A DNA stretch of 51,544 bases, the filler included, from Actinobacteria bacterium UBA7524 (lineage in GTDB: Bacteria; Actinomycetota; Coriobacteriia; Anaerosomatales; UBA912): assembly GCA_002478275.1 (NCBI GenBank). It is 5 parts of 5 records of this genome, joined end to end, with 100 filler letters (N's around TTAATTAATTAA, not from the genome) between each part and the next. Parts side by side here need not be neighbours in the genome. Positions count along the whole stretch, not along the records: positions 1 to 8,651 come from DLMY01000011.1; positions 8,752 to 15,866 come from DLMY01000008.1; 3 more parts are not named here. The stretch is one strand, 5' to 3'. Numbering within the stretch: the stretch's first letter is position 1; each line of letters begins with the position of its first letter. Shown here piece after piece: positions 1 through 9,000 of the stretch. A program made the position numbers.

Positions 1-3000
1 CACCACTTGACGGGACGTGGCCCAATTGTAGCCCGATTTCACTCTCGAAATCGGGCTACTCAGGCCTCTGGCCTGCGAAAACCTGGTGCCCCCAAGGGAA
101 TTCGAATACTGATTGTGCGTGTGACTATTGGGACTCGTTGGTACTCGCTGGTGCGGCGGAGCTGCGGTGGGTCCCAATAATAGTCACCAACGAGCACCAA
201 TAGTCACCATGTATTTGGGCAACAAATCGGGGGCAGACAAAGCGTGCCGCCGTGAACCGACTACCGTCCGCGACGACATGCCGTCGCTCAATGGTCGGAC
301 CTAGTGGACGCGTCTGCAACTACGCCCAGGACAATCGCACGGACCGAACGACTAGAGCGACTTGATGACTTCAATCCCCATCTGCCGGGCCTCGATGCCG
401 AGCATCGATGTGTTCTTCACTGCACTATCAGAGTCGAGCGCAAAGACAGCGTCAACTGAAGCCAGTATCTGCGGCATATCCCAAGGTGGTACAAACGGCT
501 CGACTGGCAGGGCAGTCTCAAGGCGCTCGCTAGCCCACCGGACGAAGTCCGACTCCCCCACGCCTTGACCAACTATCCGCAAGATCGTCTTCGACCTATC
601 CTGCTGCGCGTACCAGTCGACGATCTGGTCCAAACCCTTGCGGCGCCAGTGATGATTGATCTTTCCGATATACGCGAACACCCTCCGACTCTCAAGCACA
701 TCACTACCGCTCTCGGCCTCAAACGCGGATTCGTAGACCTCGTAGATGGGCCGACTTTCTGTTCTCGCACCTGTGTCACGGATGACGTGCTCGTGATATT
801 CGTCCGTGATCACCAACTGGGCGTCATGAAGGACGTCATGCAGAATCGCGCCGTACGCGGGGTGGGCTAGGAACTTCGCGATGTCGCTTCCCCCGTGCCG
901 AACGATGTGCGGCACGCCCGTTAGCTTCGAAGCCAGATGCGCAGCGATCCCGTACGGCACGAGGTAGTCGGACTGAATCTGGTCCCAATCGCCCGATCGC
1001 AACACGAGGAGCAGCTCGTTCAGGAGCCTCTCCAAGTAGTCCTGGCTTTGGGGCACGTGCCACGGGGCTGGGCCGGGAATATCGTGAAGGCGCAGTCCGG
1101 CCTGACGGACGAGCCAATCAAGATGCTCATCGCAGCCTGCGATTCTGTACTGCTGCTCGACACTCCCTGAATTCGTGACGAGCGCCACGTCGTGCCCAGC
1201 ATCTAGCAATCGACGCACATGCCAATAGGTGCGTGCGGCGATCCCACCTTCGATCGGTGGGAACTTGCTAACGATACATACGCGCACGGTTGCCGCCTCT
1301 GTAGAACTCCTCGACATCGAAACCCGCCGAGAGTGCACCGCGATTCTCCACGAATACGTAGTGGAAGAGGTCAAACATCACGGCGTCCAACGGTGACTTC
1401 ACGAAACACCGGAATGGATGGGAGGAAAGATCAGCATCCGATACAGCCCGAGAAGCGAAGTCCTCGACCTGCAGCGATATCCGATCCACGGCGGCCGGCA
1501 TCCCGGCCTTCTTCCGATGTAATAGGTGCGTCACGCCATAGCTCTCAAACACCGGCATCGCCGCCTCCCTCAGAACGCGCTTTGTATCCCTCCCGAGCAC
1601 CCTGGCTTCGATCGGAAGCGAAAGTGCCAGATCGACGAGATCGTCGTGCAGATACGCAGGACGAACTTCAAATCCGAATGCGGAGCAAGATCGGTCCACG
1701 CTCCAGAGGTGGTAGTTCGACAGGCCGCCGCGGATCAGAAAGTCGAACAGATTTCGCCGATAGACGGATTCATTCTCCGGTCGCGGGAACAGCGCATTGA
1801 CCTGCTCAACTACCGTATCCGGCGACCCGATGGCCTTAAGTCGTCCACGAATTCGGTCGGAGAACCCGAGCGGGTGCGTGTAGGACCAGTAATAGCCGCC
1901 GAAGAGCTCATCCGCGCCTTCTCCGGAAAATGCCACTCGAACGTGCTCGGATATCTTGCGTGACAGCATCTGGTACGCCATGCCTCCGTGGATGTCGAAC
2001 ACCCCACCGGCCACCACGTTCTCATAGTGCTGCACGAAGACAGGGAGTTCCCGCAGATAGTCGTCGATGGTCACACGGAACTCGTGATGGTCGGCACCCA
2101 CCGCTTTCGCGACCTCACGTGCCGCGTACAGGTCTGGGGTGTCGCCACCGTCCGCAAGGGTGAACGTCACCGGCGAACTCGCCTCCAGCTGGTCCGCAAG
2201 CATCACGAGCAGCGACGAATCGAGACCCCCGGACAGGTAGAACGCCTTGTCCAGCGGATCATGCCGCAGCATCTGGTCGAGTCCGTTTCGCAGGCACCCG
2301 AGCACATCATTCGCGGAGTCGGCACAGGATTCTTCTGCGCCGTCGTATCGCGCTGGCTCTGGCTCCCAGTACCTGTGGACTCGCACTCGCCCCCCGGAGA
2401 TCTCGACCACGGTTCCCGGCGGAACCTGCTTGATGTTGGCAAAGGGGGTTCGATCAGGCGAGCTGATATAGCCGAACACGGCGGTCTCATCCATCGCTTG
2501 TTCGTCGAGGGCGGTTGGCACTCTCTTGTCGGCCAGCACCGCCTTGATCTCCGAGCCAAAGACGACTTCATCACCAACAACACTGTAGAAGAGGGGCTTG
2601 ATCCCGAGTCGGTCGCGAGCCAGCAGGATCCTGCGGCCATCAACTGCGGCAACCGCAAACATCCCGTGAAGTCTCGCAAACCCATGCCAATCCTCGCGGC
2701 GGATGAGTACTTGGATCAGGTGAGACTCCGCGTCAAGCGGGTCGAGACTCAGTGACAGGGTGCGTGAGAGCTCCCGGTAGTTGTATATCTCGCCGTTGAA
2801 GAGGACGACGGGGCTACCTGCTCGAGGCATAGGAGCATCACTTGAGCCGATGATCGCCAAACGGCAGCCGCCCAGGGATGCCTCCAGCTCCGTCCTCACG
2901 TCGAACGAGTCGGGCCCGCGATGACTGATGGAGCCGAGCATCCGGCTGACAAGCGCGGAATCCTCTCGGCCGATTACCCCGCAGATCCCACACATCACAA

Positions 3001-6000: not shown

Positions 6001-9000
6001 CTGAGTCTCGCCATTCTGGGGTGGGCTTCTCGAGCCTAGCCCCGCCAAGATCGTTGGCGATCCTCGCTTGCATGACGTCAACGCGAGCCTGCTGATACTG
6101 CGTCAACTGCAGGCCCTTGAGTTTGCCCAGCTCCCGCTCGGAGTCCGTGGATCTCTGCAGGTTGAGGAGTGTGTCAGCAGCTTGAACGACCGATGGAACC
6201 CGAAGATATGTATCGAAGAGTCTCCGACAGTCCGGCCATGCGTAGGGATTCAGCGCCAGCTGGCAGAAGTACTGGTCGGAATCGGAATCGCCATTCAAGT
6301 ACTCCGAGACCTGTCTGAACCGTCCAAGTGCATCGATGTGGTCTCTGTCGTGCAAGCTGCCTTGGGCCTTGTTGTACAAAGCAACCAACTCGTGCGGAGA
6401 CACTCCCTCTCCCACCTCATCCTTGATGTGATTCAGGCAGTCGTCAGCAAGGGCGATTGAATGGTGACCGTGATAACACGCCGACGCTTCATTCAAGAAC
6501 AGCCAGCGGAGAATCCGCAGCTGGCCAGCCAGCGCGGTCGTATCACGTCGTTCGGGAACCGGAGCCTCTCGGACTAGCGCAAGCCCCACCTGATCGAGCG
6601 CAGCAGCCGCAGCAGTGCTGGATCGCTTCTGGAGCAGCGCTCGCTCTACCTTCGCGACGAGCAGCTTCGTCCAAAGACCATCGACAACTGGATCCTCTCC
6701 GCAGCCTTCAATCCTCGGATCCTGCTGGAGGGGCTCAAGCACAACGGACTTCAGCAGACGCCTCTCGGTATCACCGTGCGGTTCATGAAACGCAATGCGA
6801 ATACCGGATAGACCGTCTGGCACGTGCAGGCTCGGGTCGACACTGAAGTGCTCCCTCTCCCAAGGGGCGACTGACGTGTCGTCGCAGAGCGTACTGTCGA
6901 TCTTGACCAAGTCGTCAAGGTCGAGGTCCCGGAGTGCCTCGCCGGTAATTGAGCACCATGGCCCGTTGTAGTCCTCTTGGTCCACAGCGACGTCGTAGAG
7001 CAGACAGAAATACTCAAGCGCTCGAAACCTTGGGCTTCGAACGCGAGCGGTGGCCACCGGGGAGCCTACCTACACCCGTGGCACGAGGAGCACTGCCGGC
7101 AGGCCAGTTCCTTGTTCACGTTCTCCACGCCTCGCAGTGGGAACCGCATCTTGTCCTGCTTCTTGATCGCCGGCTTCTCGTACGTCTTGGCCTTCTTGGC
7201 AGCCATGCCTTACGCCCCCTTTGTCACGAGTCCTTCGCTTGCACATGTTTCAAGCAACTCCGCGACATCCGCCCTGACGGTGTTCACGTCCGTACCAAAC
7301 TCGTCGGCAAGGCCGAGCACGATCGTCTCGAACTCGGCTCCACTCTCGAGCGCTTCCAGCACGGTGAATGCTGTCCCATTCACCTCGTAGTGCTCACCGC
7401 TCTCCAAATCGAATGCCCAGAACGTCTCGGATGGGCCCCTTCGAAGACGCAGGCCCTGTCTCACACGATACATTCAACCGGCCTCCAACAATGCGGATCG
7501 GGACCAAAACAGTCGCCCGAAGCGAAGTGCGCCATCGCTCGGCATCCACGACAGACAGCAATCAGATCGCACTTGGCGCAGTCCGCCAGGTTCTCTGGGT
7601 CCCGAATCCTCCAGAGGAGATCCGAGTCGTACCATATCTTGAAGAGCCCGTCTCGCAGCACATGTCCGAGCGAAATCGGCAATCGTCGGCAAGGGTAGAC
7701 AGTCCCATCGTGCATGATGGTGAGTGCGTTGGTTCCCACGGAGCACATCGCCCCGACCGTCGGATCATCCTTATCGACAAGGGCGAAGAGCGGGCGGTAC
7801 ATCAAGACCCTGACGCGGCGTTCCGCCACACCGAGAGCGTGGACCGTCTCGAAGACCTCTCGCGCCTCTTCGGGTGTCAGCATGGCATCGTGAAGTTCTG
7901 CCCCCGAGCCCTCAGGGATGAACCGCTCGACAGCGAAGGTGTCAACTTGATGGTCAGCGAGCACATCGAGCATCTGTGGGATCGAGCCCTTGTTCCGCCT
8001 CGTGACGGTCATCATGACCGCGACCTCCATGCCCTGGGACTTGAGGCGGTCTATCGCCGCAAGCGTTCGCTCGAAGGTGCCGTCGCCCCGGATCGAGTCG
8101 TTGAGAACGGCTGATGGGCCTTCGAGCGAGAGCTGGACACGTCGGAGCTTCGTCGCGGCGCGCATGCGCGCAACGTCTTCATCCGAAATGAGGGCTCCAT
8201 TGGTCAAGATGTCGTAGTAGCCCACGACATGACTGAGGTCGAGCATGCTCATCAGCGCGAACAACTCTTCGCGCCTCGTGAATGGCTCGCCACCCGTGAG
8301 GGAGAATGAGCCGACGCGATTCCACACGCTGAGCGCCCTCTCCATTTCGCCGAAGGCGGCTTGAAGGTCGCTCAGGGTCAGCTCTTCCGATGAGGAGTAC
8401 GACGCGTGGTAGCAGTGGGCGCAGCGCTGGTTGCAGCGTTCAGTCAGGTGCCACTGAAAGTAGAACTCATCCCCTGCCGGAATCTCCAACTGTCACTCCA
8501 AGAGTACAGACACAAGAGTACAGACACATTTCGCTATCACTGCGCGCGCGCCCAAGGGCCAAGAGCAGGCAATCGGCGATCTTCGGCGGTCGGAATCGGC
8601 GATCCCATTTCATGAAGAATACAGCGAAAGGCCATGTCCCGTCAAGTGGTGNNNNNNNNNNNNNNNNNNNNNNNNNNNNNNNNNNNNNNNNNNNNTTAAT
8701 TAATTAANNNNNNNNNNNNNNNNNNNNNNNNNNNNNNNNNNNNNNNNNNNNTTTAGAGTCCGGGAGTCAGACTATGTGGGCTAAGCTGTGTAGTCGAGAG
8801 GGAAACAGCCCAGACCGCCCGCTAAGGTCCCTAAATCCATGCTAAGTGGCAAAGGATGTGCGTTTGCTCAGACAACCAGGATGTTGGCTTANNNNNNNNN
8901 NNNNNNNNNNNNNNNNNNNNNNNNNNNNNNNNNNNNNNNNNNNNNNNNNNNNNNNNNNNNNNNNNNNNNNNNNNNNNNNNNNNNNNNNNNNNNNNNNNNN

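Follow-up and report, generated by a model that had tools for sequence, protein, structure and literature searches.

Gene content of the locus

In the window, the whole 51,544-nucleotide stretch of DNA that was analysed, the minus strand from position 8489 to 352 constitutes one operon, which encodes in order a radical SAM (rSAM)/SPASM enzyme, a PqqD-family protein, a 46-aa peptide, a large partner in two frames, an alpha/alpha toroid, an AsnB-type amidotransferase and a GT4-family glycosyltransferase (Table 1). Neighbouring genes overlap or are spaced by 8 nt or less, and a run of N terminates the contig at about 8652. All cassette genes listed in the initial annotation were located at their coordinates on this strand.

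Table 1. Features of the cassette in the window.
Feature	Position	Strand	Evidence
Radical SAM/SPASM maturase, 342 aa	7461..8489	-	PF04055 73.2 bits, PF13186 37.8 bits, both above cut-off
PqqD-family peptide chaperone (RRE), 87 aa	7210..7473	-	PF05402 41.7 bits (cut-off 23.4)
Precursor peptide, 46 aa	7066..7206	-	Leader Y-x-K-P-x-[IL] ... M-x-F; core C-x-Q-C-S-x-C-H-x-C-[RK], directly followed by the stop codon
Helical N-terminal part of the large partner, 397 aa	5864..7057	-	Separate ORF; no family match
MBL-fold metallo-hydrolase, RNase Z/ELAC-like, with C-terminal four-Cys zinc ribbon, 702 aa	3768..5876	-	PF00753, PF12706
(alpha/alpha)6 toroid, single domain, prenyltransferase/squalene-cyclase-repeat-like, 258 aa	2995..3771	-	Predicted fold
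Asparagine-synthetase-type glutamine amidotransferase (AsnB), 576 aa	1268..2998	-	PF00733, PF13537; TIGR01536 273 bits (cut-off 267.1)
GT4-family glycosyltransferase, 340 aa as called	352..1374	-	PF13579 39.5 bits

The maturase carries a CX3CX2C motif close to its N-terminus and a Cys-rich SPASM C-terminus, and its orthologues in cassette loci show identities of 43–86%. The top NCBIfam model is TIGR04340, which belongs to the uncharacterised ACGX system of rSAM/SPASM enzymes and ACGX-repeat peptides. It is the best curated model both for the window maturase (196.6 bits) and for types A and B elsewhere (185–193 bits), and both systems have a Cys-rich substrate. However, the window maturase scores far below the cut-off of 400, its peptide is devoid of ACGX repeats, and the present cassette has a separate PqqD, toroid, AsnB and GT4. 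The pqqD-type gene and the rSAM gene share 13 nt, and the two are fused in locus L033. The PqqD protein reaches 40.8 bits against the lasso-type PqqD model (cut-off 70), and AsnB reaches 109.5 bits against the lasso cyclase model (cut-off 525). The nucleophile Cys of AsnB lies at the N-terminus, just after the start Met residue(s). The actual start of the GT4 gene is possibly further in than the called position, 1374.

The helical and MBL parts of the large partner are fused in most relatives (approximately 1050 aa), and a single ORF of 974–1255 aa is present in L001, L004–L006, L008, L011–L013, L018 and L034. The two-frame arrangement noted in the initial annotation is real, as contigs from four runs in four studies reproduce it without any insertion or deletion over positions 5400–6400. 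The 397-aa ORF is TPR-like by an Atlas score of 0.88, which serves as a lead only. In the MBL protein, His373, Asp377, His378, His471, Asp506 and His561 are invariant and His375 is kept in at least 90% of sequences; in the zinc ribbon, Cys645, Cys648 and Cys673 are invariant and Cys676 is kept in at least 90%. The top PDB match of its model (pLDDT 67.4) is RNase Z 1y44 (E 4.3e-10), and the protein is RNase Z-like with a complete set of metal ligands. The toroid contains 31 invariant columns across 10 sequences. Its model (pLDDT 89.6, pTM 0.88) matches drimenyl diphosphate synthase 8zg5 (E 8e-9), followed by squalene-hopene cyclases, MstE and complement TED domains. Among 7999 candidates scored, 199 clusters match the toroid at E≤1e-10. 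Of all the cassette proteins, it marks the cassette most specifically.

The precursor family and its linkage to the cassette

A single-sequence phmmer search with the window peptide retrieved 140 proteins at E≤1e-3 and four at E≤1e-10. The initial annotation gave 264 and 122 clusters at these thresholds, figures that were not reproduced and may stem from a profile search. The peptides are Lys-rich at the N-terminus and Cys/His-rich at the C-terminus. Of the 140 representatives, 139 retain the leader motif, which is of the Y-x-x-P type read by RRE proteins. Seven core residues (four Cys, Gln, first Ser and His) are each retained in 131–133 representatives; the exact 11-residue core of the window occurs in 52. 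The earlier description of the core as nearly invariant holds for seven of the eleven positions and fails for the whole 11-mer; the core is a pattern, C-x-Q-C-S-x-C-H-x-C-[RK], rather than an invariant 11-mer. The name "hypothetical protein" was encountered as previously listed, whereas "cytochrome c2" was not among the names met and "septation ring formation regulator EzrA" was found instead. Bathyarchaeia, named earlier as part of the range, are absent from the 44 titled loci, where archaea are represented by Methanoperedens, which has the cassette, and by Pacearchaeota or another DPANN archaeon, which has the peptide alone.

In 80 metagenome loci found through the 258-aa toroid protein alone, each gene was counted only where the flank sufficed. 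Of the 34 loci whose upstream flank is 3950 nt or longer, every one has a core-bearing ORF there in the same orientation, and the rSAM gene is present in all 30 whose upstream flank reaches 5200 nt. Downstream, AsnB is found in 50 of 50 loci where the flank is 1500 nt or longer, and GT4 in 31 of 31 where it is 3300 nt or longer. The association of peptide and cassette is far above chance, and the gene order is constant across phyla. The obligate core consists of six genes: rSAM/SPASM, PqqD, precursor, alpha/alpha toroid, AsnB-type amidotransferase and GT4. One precursor copy is found in the window's own genome and in each of 10 other cassette genomes out of 10. At one fixed place, a phosphoesterase module is swapped between loci: the TPR-like/RNase Z-like MBL/zinc-ribbon protein, a protein of approximately 590 aa, or a second rSAM with a P-loop kinase, a PHP protein and an HD dGTPase-like protein, the last matching the PADLOC dGTPase at 180 bits. 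These findings support the proposal that a peptide-maturation cassette of the rSAM/SPASM-PqqD kind is widespread and that its precursor is new and strongly conserved.

Sactipeptides, ranthipeptides, SCIFF and the CrpA–CrpC system likewise combine an rSAM/SPASM enzyme and RRE with a short Cys-rich core; SCIFF is itself a small, conserved Cys-rich peptide. No NCBIfam model matches the window peptide, and its identification as SCIFF was rejected. The window maturase passes none of the curated models of these families, with 80.6 bits for StsB (cut-off 625), 65.7 for AlbA (850) and 60 for SkfB (300). In addition, these systems are without the toroid, AsnB, GT4 and phosphoesterase module that are obligate here. 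CrpC introduces ranthionines into a Cys-rich substrate that bears C-X-X-Q/D motifs (PMC13692751). The peptide is covered by no model in Pfam, NCBIfam, PHROG or PADLOC. "Undescribed" is nevertheless too strong a term, since three family members are listed in a supplementary spreadsheet as RODEO-predicted sacti/ranthipeptide precursors, unnamed and classed as "Other Uncharacterized", group 39 (PMC10288494). That group was left without further analysis there because only groups with more than five sequences were taken (PMC10288494).

This listing is compatible with an ordinary antimicrobial sacti- or ranthipeptide cluster serving bacterial competition from genomic islands, as are the ABC exporters near the peptide in L016/L017, L032, L041 and L044, the C39-like peptidase near it in L028/L031, and the island-like contexts of the cassette. 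Bacteriocin cores are usually variable, however, and the present core is conserved in many phyla and archaea; moreover, the obligate core includes no exporter, protease or immunity gene, and the precursor occurs alone in phages. A bacteriocin function is considered very unlikely.

Lone precursor genes and the defence neighbourhood

The distribution is patchy, with 2 of 40 relatives and none of four in the same family. The peptide gene stands alone in 17 of the 44 genome loci, comprising all CPR and DPANN loci as well as prophages, and occurs in tandem copies in a Pacearchaeota genome. No close maturase match was found in 15 orphan-peptide genomes, which are MAGs that may be incomplete. In two CPR genomes, an rSAM closer to the ACGX model (276 bits) stands alone, 56–73 kb from the orphan peptide. 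Viral contigs, 31 in all, also carry the peptide gene, for the most part within head/packaging modules; rSAM, PqqD, toroid, GT4 and MBL genes are absent from all 31. By direct scan, a head/packaging or connector PHROG lies within 3 kb of the peptide in 18 of the 31; short viral contigs are biased towards hallmark genes. Examples of the gene order are TerS-peptide-TerL, TerL-peptide-portal and portal-peptide-protease. The phage leaders closely resemble those of cassette lineages: L067/L068 agree with L010 at 25 of 27 positions, and L072 with L023 at 21 of 27.

The lone genes beside terminase, portal or protease genes, the tandem copies, the genomes yielding no close maturase match, and the Lys-rich and Cys/His-rich ends of the peptide would all suit a small protein functional by itself, for example a basic zinc or iron-sulfur knuckle of the Cys4-His kind whose ligand is nucleic acid or a head/packaging component of the phage. 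The gene would then belong primarily to phages and small genomes, and the rSAM cassette would be secondary, modifying or targeting its product. Against this stand the nearly universal RRE-type leader motif, a complex prediction that weakly places the peptide on PqqD (see below), the constant company of peptide, PqqD and rSAM wherever toroid, AsnB and GT4 occur, the absence of the peptide from all cultured phages of the phage collection, and the possible incompleteness of the MAGs. A stand-alone function appears quite unlikely.

Known defence systems adjoin 10 of 20 cassette loci (defence-family matches at E≤1e-25) as compared with 1 of 15 orphan-peptide loci (Fisher p = 0.009). The size cut-off was 130 aa for the cassette loci and 200 aa for the orphan control, and at 200 aa the cassette count is 9 of 20; the control, mostly tiny CPR/DPANN genomes, is imperfect, and the sorting of matches into "generic" and "bona fide" is our own. 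Directly upstream of the rSAM gene lie HmaB/HmaC in L004 (1224 and 1057 bits) and SoFic in L016. In L022, Septu PtuA/PtuB is beside and directly upstream of the rSAM gene, with a type I R-M system farther out; such a system lies within 0.5 kb in L023, and DrmD is present in L018. The other 10 cassette loci have no defence neighbour. None of the cassette proteins belongs to a known defence family.

Proposed maturation pathway and possible role in phage–host conflict

The cassette is very probably a RiPP-type maturation system, in agreement with its domain content and with the independent RODEO-based listing of its peptide. First, the leader would be bound by PqqD, as expected from the family. 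A prediction of the PqqD–peptide complex weakly supports this binding: it scores 0.48 against 0.01 for the best control, with a partner pLDDT of at least 52 and at least 94% of contacts shared between runs. When the tool was calibrated, 116 of 157 solved complexes reached the mark, as did 2 of 215 mismatches, but scores of 0.60 or less came from only 18 of the 157 and from both mismatches. RRE–leader complexes of related families have been solved, so the pass may reflect likeness to them. Second, the rSAM/SPASM enzyme would cross-link the Cys-rich C-terminal core, most likely by thioethers from Cys to neighbours, for example to the Gln or Ser that are invariant. Third, GT4 and the Gln-dependent amidotransferase would tailor the product, perhaps by C-terminal amidation, a guess made because the C-terminus is the only invariant carboxylate, or by amidation of an added sugar acid. 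Finally, the variable module may act jointly with the matured peptide.

The initial annotation favoured a cofactor-like or metal-binding product. If anaerobes made a redox cofactor or a metal-binding product from the peptide, the cassette would be a pathway like those of mycofactocin and PQQ, and the phage copy an auxiliary metabolic gene. These pathways share with the cassette an rSAM/SPASM enzyme, a PqqD-type chaperone and a short precursor whose C-terminal part is invariant. The mycofactocin pathway includes a glycosyltransferase, so that rSAM/SPASM, PqqD and GT4 parallel MftC, MftB and MftF, and its precursor likewise bears the core at the very C-terminus. The MBL-fold PqqB (4z7r) is among the structural matches of the cassette MBL protein (rank 36, E 4.9e-7), and MftC is one of the better models for the maturase. 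Seven core positions conserved across phyla and a single copy per genome agree with such a pathway, and the regular Cys spacing with C-x-x-C-H may suit metal, cluster or haem binding. However, no cofactor family model is passed: MftC gives 144.7 bits (cut-off 265), PqqE 75.7 (381), and PqqD is also below cut-off. The core contains no Val-Tyr or Glu/Tyr pair, MftD/MftE or PqqC were not seen with the cassette, and no recurring oxidoreductase was noticed in the flanks. The exchangeable phosphoesterase module would be unusual in a fixed pathway, and a cofactor role is further weakened by the patchy, island-borne distribution, the defence neighbours at half of the loci, and the precursors that stand alone, both on the 31 phage contigs and in those CPR/DPANN genomes where no close maturase match was found. 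We regard a cofactor as unlikely.

A role in conflict or defence, although put at slightly less than even odds, is favoured over a housekeeping cofactor because defence neighbours occur at half of the cassette loci, the precursor is found alone in uncultivated phages and prophages, and the phage leaders resemble those of cassette lineages. Phage-borne precursors would plug into the host maturation machinery, for example as an antitoxin-like or decoy copy. Pseudo-ToxI RNA and T4 Dmd are phage-borne mimics of host antitoxins, and there too what the phages carry of the host system is limited to its small, labile-type component, with a sequence near that of the host copy. The peptide as antitoxin and the MBL/HD module as toxin are an analogy only, and the phage peptide copies differ in lying in late modules. 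A precedent for an anti-phage RiPP cluster is provided by the lanthiphages, class I lanthipeptide clusters colocalised with defence systems in defence islands (bioRxiv 10.1101/2024.06.26.600839). They differ in using lanthionine synthetases, in being confined to Actinobacteria and in conferring experimentally demonstrated protection, and their abstract mentions no phage-borne precursors.

Several observations sit uneasily with a conflict role. Bacteriocin and other accessory clusters also occur in genomic islands. A late head/packaging module is an unexpected place for early anti-defence genes, and the cross-phylum core at the extreme C-terminus, the glycosyltransferase and the PqqB-like fold also fit a cofactor pathway. 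The chromosomal orphans of CPR and DPANN genomes, where no close maturase match was found, fit either model poorly.

Taken as a whole, the reading of the cassette as a RiPP-type maturation system with a probable part in phage–host conflict is evenly balanced in our estimation. The peptide gene alone in viruses and tiny symbiotic microbes, together with the cassette near anti-virus genes, hints at a role in the conflict between viruses and their hosts.

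Organization of the operon and its precursor peptide

The window consists of several contigs joined in a chain, and the first contig ends at about position 8652 in an N run. This contig has a G+C content of 0.58–0.62, similar to most of the remaining window, and carries one tightly packed operon on the minus strand (see the table). The initial annotation had placed a radical SAM/SPASM (rSAM/SPASM) maturase, a PqqD-type protein and a short precursor beside each other, and this arrangement holds, with both families above the Pfam cut-offs and a conserved leader and core in the precursor. 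The maturase possesses a CX3CX2C motif within its first 30 residues (PF04055, 73.2 bits against a cut-off of 29.5) and a SPASM domain at its C-terminus (PF13186, 37.8 bits against 21.5). The PqqD/RRE protein matches PF05402 with 41.7 bits (cut-off 23.4), and is fused to the rSAM enzyme in L033, the locus of a Desulfovibrio sp. isolate that is a cultured carrier of the cassette. No tRNA or Rfam family was found on the cassette contig, where promoters and terminators were either absent or no more frequent than in shuffled sequences. The low-G+C stretch at 8–12 kb of the window is due to the 23S and 5S rRNA genes located there.

Features of the window
Feature	Position	Strand	Assignment
rSAM/SPASM maturase	8489–7461	-	Pfam Radical_SAM and SPASM above cut-offs
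PqqD	7473–7210	-	Pfam PqqD above cut-off
46-aa ORF (peptide)	7206–7066	-	no Pfam/NCBIfam match
397-aa ORF	7057–5864	-	no Pfam/NCBIfam match
702-aa ORF	5876–3768	-	metallo-beta-lactamase superfamily
258-aa ORF (toroid)	3771–2995	-	no Pfam/NCBIfam match
576-aa ORF	2998–1268	-	Asn_synthase/GATase; NCBIfam asparagine synthase model, 273 bits (cut-off 267.1)
340-aa ORF	1374–352	-	GT4
23S rRNA, bacterial, partial	within 8653–12253		model positions 898–2925, broken by masked N runs
5S rRNA	within 8653–12253		after the partial 23S rRNA, on the next contig piece
tRNA gene	30601–30674		Rfam; on a later contig (G000:C59)

The peptide is encoded by a single gene in the window's own assembly, and likewise in 10 of 10 other cassette-bearing genomes. 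A word-indexed search yielded 17 peptide clusters of 45–76 aa, all 17 of which end in the exact 11-residue core of the window, and 15 invariant columns are common to 16 of them. This sample is biased to the exact core, as is the genome scan, whose search pattern consisted of the first eight core residues; the true picture is given by two samples free of that bias. The first is a phmmer search with the single sequence against 1.84 billion representatives, which retrieved 140 proteins of 39–104 aa at E ≤ 1e-3 and four at E ≤ 1e-10. The 264 and 122 clusters originally counted at these thresholds were not reproduced in this way and may stem from a profile search. The exact core occurs in only 52 of the 140 relatives, and the near-invariance claimed for it thus applies to individual positions: the four Cys, the Gln, the first Ser and the His are each kept in 131–133 of the 140. 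Most exceptions reflect a register shift caused by a short C-terminal extension. The leader motif [YF]-x-x-P is present in 139 of the 140. The second sample comprises metagenome loci fetched through the 258-aa toroid alone (hereafter toroid-first loci; the best 80 of 217 relatives), in which the pattern C-x-Q-C-S-[SG]-C-H-x-C-x, with zero to two residues after it, describes each of the 45 peptides found. Eight of them end in the exact core, and two more carry it with a two-residue extension. The conservation seen in both samples rules out a chance ORF.

A six-gene cassette with an exchangeable module

Among the 44 titled genome loci that contain the peptide, 25 have cassette partners, 17 have none and two are too short to judge. 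The toroid-first loci provide a cleaner test of linkage. In these best 80 of 217 relatives, every locus with enough flanking sequence has the gene in question: on the upstream side the peptide (34 of 34 loci, at least 3950 nt required) and the rSAM gene (30 of 30, at least 5200 nt), and on the downstream side the asparagine synthase homolog (AsnB; 50 of 50, at least 1500 nt) and GT4 (31 of 31, at least 3300 nt). The obligate core therefore comprises six genes, not three.

Either the interval from peptide to toroid or the region behind GT4 holds a variable module. Within the 45 peptide-bearing toroid-first loci (from the best 80 of 217), 30 have a protein of about 1050 aa as this module and eight have an unrelated protein of about 590 aa without a family match; in the other seven, the peptide directly adjoins the toroid. 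The peptide is also next to the toroid in the genome loci with a second type of module (type B: L016/L017, L024, L027 and L030). In L016/L017, L027 and L030, these genes are followed by a second rSAM, a P-loop kinase, a PHP protein and an 860–960-aa HD dGTPase-like protein, of which set L024 shows the HD protein only. L027 additionally has a B12-rSAM gene, and L033 has both a B12-rSAM and a second rSAM.

Several Desulfobacterota-type cassettes (L014 709–1440, L018 10143–10883, L019 and L105 at about 2165) have an N6_N4 DNA methylase gene inserted after the peptide, ahead of the large metallo-beta-lactamase (MBL) partner. A P-loop kinase-like protein of 160–200 aa, assigned to a nucleoside/nucleotide-kinase fold by the Atlas, follows GT4 in six loci (L014, L105, L106, L113, L131 and L135). 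The same kind of small gene adjoins peptides that stand without cassette partners in L029, L039 and L044, and another such peptide (L025) is adjoined by the type B kind of P-loop kinase. These kinase-like proteins are the only ones that recur both in cassettes and beside partnerless peptides, and the 160–200-aa protein may act on the peptide, for example on its Ser residues. L019 and L020, two contigs of one MAG, start with an identical peptide gene and then diverge, which may represent an assembly repeat or a strain variant at the downstream border of the peptide.

The 258-aa protein was modeled as a single (alpha/alpha)6 toroid with a pLDDT of 89.6. Its best PDB neighbors are class II terpene cyclases, led by drimenyl diphosphate synthase (E 8e-9) and followed by squalene-hopene cyclases and MstE, with complement thioester domains ranking after them. 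Ten toroid sequences share 31 invariant columns, which include many Asp, Glu, Trp and His residues and no Cys. The large partner retains the complete set of MBL metal ligands together with a four-Cys ribbon. Its MBL domain, for which the model is only moderately confident (pLDDT 67.4), is nearest to RNase Z, ELAC, YhfI and ZipD, with PqqB and the phage nuclease Apyc1 lower in the list; as a lead only, the N-terminal 397-aa part appears helical and TPR-like. The division of the large partner into two frames in the window, flagged in the initial annotation, is genuine. Contigs of four runs from four studies span positions 5400–6400 free of indels, with 12 substitutions in one contig, and the window itself may derive from one of these runs. 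An assembly frameshift is thereby ruled out, and the large partner is also split in L003. The AsnB homolog keeps the N-terminal nucleophile Cys and, on the basis of this residue, should be a true glutamine-dependent amidotransferase; it is not a lasso cyclase.

The flanks of the cassettes were scanned with Pfam and PADLOC, covering 88 proteins of at least 130 aa from 20 loci, with defence calls accepted at E ≤ 1e-25. Three duplicates (L002, L017 and L019, of L001, L016 and L018, respectively) and two loci that were too short (L003 and L007) were left out, and ABC, AAA and sigma-54 activator matches were set aside as generic by our own filtering. Bona fide defence genes are located beside 10 of the 20 cassette loci. 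HmaB/HmaC (L004), SoFic (L016) and PtuA/PtuB of a Septu system that accompanies a type I R-M system (L022) lie directly upstream of the rSAM gene, and another type I R-M system ends about 0.5 kb upstream of it (L023). The remaining loci contain a type II methylase (L005), a Metallophos-NACHT protein (PDC-S60, L008), a type IIG enzyme (L011), a DruE/BrxL-like protein (L014), DrmD with a helicase (L018), and PDC-S05 with a type I R fragment (L027). As a control, 136 proteins of at least 200 aa from 15 loci with partnerless peptides gave defence genes in one locus (type II R-M, L028). The difference between 10 of 20 and 1 of 15 loci corresponds to p = 0.009 in Fisher's exact test, with an imperfect control that consists mostly of tiny genomes and involves a differing size cut-off and our own filter of generic matches; with the 200-aa cut-off, the cassette count is 9 of 20. 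The Metallophos-NACHT (STAND) protein was also observed in a second, unrelated locus, where it lies on the opposite side of the cassette (L008 8343–10664; L145, from position 13 onwards). None of the cassette proteins falls into a known defence family of PADLOC 2.0, in which the only match is a general, rSAM-level one to pVip (58.5 bits). In type B loci, the HD protein matches a dGTPase (180 bits) and the B12-rSAM matches PDC-M51A (58 bits).

Precursor genes without their enzymes in cellular and viral genomes

The 17 genome loci without any cassette partner encode peptides with the canonical leader and core (orphan peptides). Fourteen of these loci have at least 2.5 kb upstream, the region in which rSAM and PqqD sit in every cassette locus. 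Every CPR locus (Wolfebacteria, Moranbacteria, Uhrbacteria and Parcubacteria) and every DPANN locus (Pacearchaeota and another archaeon) among the 44 is one of the 17, as are loci in Muribaculaceae, Planctomycetota, Stahlbacteria and Bacillota MAGs. The neighbors in these orphan loci are housekeeping genes, such as those for GluRS, HisRS, signal peptidase, a TrmB regulator and [FeFe] hydrogenase, and the orphan peptide of L042 is adjoined by a P22-like portal. L042, L035 and L021 appear to be prophage-borne and have genes in common with viral loci. Among relatives, the distribution of the peptide is patchy, as it is carried by 2 of 40 genomes of the same order and 0 of 4 in the same family.

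When the window's maturase was compared with 15 whole orphan genomes, nothing near the 43–86% identity of the cassette loci was detected, with the incompleteness of MAGs as a caveat, and the best matches were rSAM/SPASM genes at 31% identity. A toroid query gave no match in 5 of 5 orphan genomes, and an empty answer from such a search carries no weight. These partnerless copies bear on the idea of a small protein that acts independently, an idea we consider quite improbable given the linkage of the peptide to the other core genes in every sufficiently long toroid-first locus. Two of the 31%-identical rSAM/SPASM genes, which stand alone with no PqqD beside them, lie 56–73 kb from the orphan peptide in two CPR genomes (L045 1498–2550 and L046); the former, the only one of the two scanned, scores 276 bits on the ACGX model, above the cassette maturases. 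The Pacearchaeota locus L029 (9905–10302) contains two tandem peptide genes, both ending in the core pattern, with the small P-loop kinase-like gene directly downstream.

A scan of IMG/VR revealed the peptide on 31 viral contigs, 25 of which encode the exact core. Homologs of rSAM, PqqD, the toroid, GT4, the MBL protein and the 397-aa protein were found on none of the 31 at E ≤ 1e-5, and a weak AsnB-like stretch is present on one. We scanned 85 proteins neighboring the viral peptides against PHROGs. In 18 of the 31 loci, a protein encoded within 3 kb of the peptide belongs to a head/packaging or connector family, although in two of the 18 the match reaches only E ~1e-6; beyond these 18, L087 and L090 share their ORF layout with twins that were scanned. 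The extent of the enrichment is uncertain, as short viral contigs are biased to hallmark genes. Typical gene orders are TerS-peptide-TerL in L066, TerL-peptide-portal in L069, portal-peptide-protease in L073, portal-peptide-head morphogenesis in L089 and peptide-TerS-TerL in L086. A conserved 112–115-aa protein, phrog_17560, was seen directly after the peptide both in prophage-like loci (L035 10349–10696 and L042 10120–10458) and in viral ones (L085, L089 and L090). Two viral contigs, one of them 316 kb in length, encode longer variants in which an additional Cys-rich insert separates the leader from the canonical core (L080 8001–8180 and L088 8001–8180).

The phage leaders resemble those of particular cellular lineages. 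The leaders of L067 and L068 match that of the Desulfobacterota-type cassette L010 at 25 of 27 positions, and the L072 leader matches that of the cassette locus L023 at 21 of 27. For 16 of the viral loci, the most similar leader is that of a cassette locus; for 13 it comes from an orphan locus and for two from a locus too short to judge. The TerL of L067 has a 43%-identical relative in one of five cassette-bearing genomes searched, and this identity is too distant to name the host. No PHROG covers the peptide. It gave no match at E ≤ 0.01 in 50,697 phage and 72,556 plasmid records from cultured sources, and a phage-type peptide used as the query against cultured phages produced chance-level matches only (E ≥ 1).

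Comparison with known systems and possible roles

By its domain content, the cassette is a member of the broad kind of RiPP systems that combine rSAM/SPASM and RRE proteins. It failed all tests against curated families, which covered ACGX, sactipeptide, ranthipeptide, SCIFF, mycofactocin, PQQ, lasso and known defence systems. In the NCBIfam scan, the maturase stayed below every cut-off of the mycofactocin, SbtM, AhbD, GeoRSP, PqqE and sactipeptide models. Its best curated model is the ACGX-system rSAM (TIGR04340), with 196.6 bits against a cut-off of 400, and the peptide lacks ACGX repeats and has no NCBIfam match at E ≤ 0.01. Among the sactipeptide, ranthipeptide and SCIFF families, the maturase reaches 80.6 of 625 bits for StsB, 65.7 of 850 for AlbA and 60 of 300 for SkfB, and the peptide has no match. 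For mycofactocin, the MftC model gives 144.7 bits against 265, and the precursor ends in Cys-Arg instead of a C-terminal Val-Tyr. For PQQ, the scores are 75.7 against 381.35 (PqqE) and 25.2 against 46 (PqqD), the core contains neither Glu nor Tyr, and the operon has no PqqC. A lasso peptide, as could be suggested by the Y-x-x-P leader and the AsnB homolog, is ruled out by the retained glutaminase Cys, the match to the asparagine synthase model and the lack of a lasso protease of the transglutaminase-like (B2) type; the cyclase model reaches 109.5 bits against 525, over the N-terminal half only, and the lasso-type PqqD model 40.8 against 70.

The system had been called undescribed, a claim that stands in part. 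Three precursors, including that of the Syntrophorhabdus locus L034, are already listed in a supplementary spreadsheet of PMC10288494, as 'Other Uncharacterized', group 39, RODEO sacti/ranthipeptide candidates. Our literature search found no paper on the cassette, with the proviso that supplements of bioRxiv preprints and other mining papers may list it, and found neither the core 11-mer nor a 6-mer of it in any paper; searches for 'ACGX' returned unrelated papers only. The accessible portion of a Bacteroidales RiPP mining paper (PMC10352776) makes no mention of squalene, asparagine or prenyltransferase. As far as these searches reach, the six-gene core with toroid, AsnB and GT4, the exchangeable phosphoesterase module, the orphan precursors borne by phages and by CPR and DPANN genomes, and the defence-island context are new.

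In the pathway that we envisage, PqqD would bind the leader of the peptide. The predicted complex of the two supports this weakly, scoring 0.48 against 0.01 for the best control, with a partner pLDDT of at least 52 and agreement in at least 94% of contacts between runs; by the calibration of the tool, a pass up to 0.60 is wrong in most cases if the pairing was not already likely, and this pass may come from likeness to the solved RRE-leader complexes of related families. The rSAM/SPASM enzyme would then cross-link the Cys-rich core, most likely as thioethers, since this is the chemistry of its nearest characterized relatives; the same chemistry underlies the RODEO listing of three members of the family as sacti/ranthipeptide candidates (PMC10288494). 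GT4 and the amidotransferase presumably tailor the product. As no carboxylate other than that of the C-terminus is invariant, our guess is C-terminal amidation or else amidation of an added sugar acid.

The combination of a constant core with a changing phosphoesterase module resembles a conserved part that makes a signal or ligand and is coupled to interchangeable effectors. Since this layout coincides with defence neighbors and with phage precursors that have host-like leaders, a role in phage–host conflict is the reading we prefer, at slightly less than an even chance. In this reading, phage copies of the precursor would be matured by host enzymes and subvert the system. A specific form of this role is possible and rather doubtful, namely an anti-phage system in which a mini-peptide, matured by rSAM and glycosylated or amidated, controls an exchangeable effector of nuclease or dNTPase type, such as the RNase Z-like MBL or the HD/PHP/kinase set. 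Phages, and perhaps episymbiotic CPR and DPANN organisms, would carry look-alike precursors that are matured by host PqqD and rSAM and disarm it. The initial annotation had instead proposed a cofactor-like or metal-binding product; next to the kept Cys and His residues of the core stand the module layout, the defence neighbors and the viral copies on which our preference for conflict is based, and we regard such a product as unlikely.

If the role in phage–host conflict is true, the matured peptide would be a regulatory part of a defence system and represent a new chemical logic in prokaryotic immunity, and these phages would be the first case of carrying a RiPP precursor minus its enzymes. 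It also raises the testable question of whether phages hijack the peptide-maturation machinery of their hosts. Should the look-alike precursors indeed disarm an anti-phage system, they would be the first RiPP precursor mimics serving as counter-defence. A cofactor or metal-binding product would instead mean that many anaerobe phyla share a new peptide-derived cofactor, which phages and ultra-small symbionts have borrowed. Whichever of the two is true, an rSAM/SPASM enzyme that is obligately paired with a terpene-cyclase-like toroid, with an AsnB amidotransferase and with GT4 points to peptide chemistry of an unknown kind.
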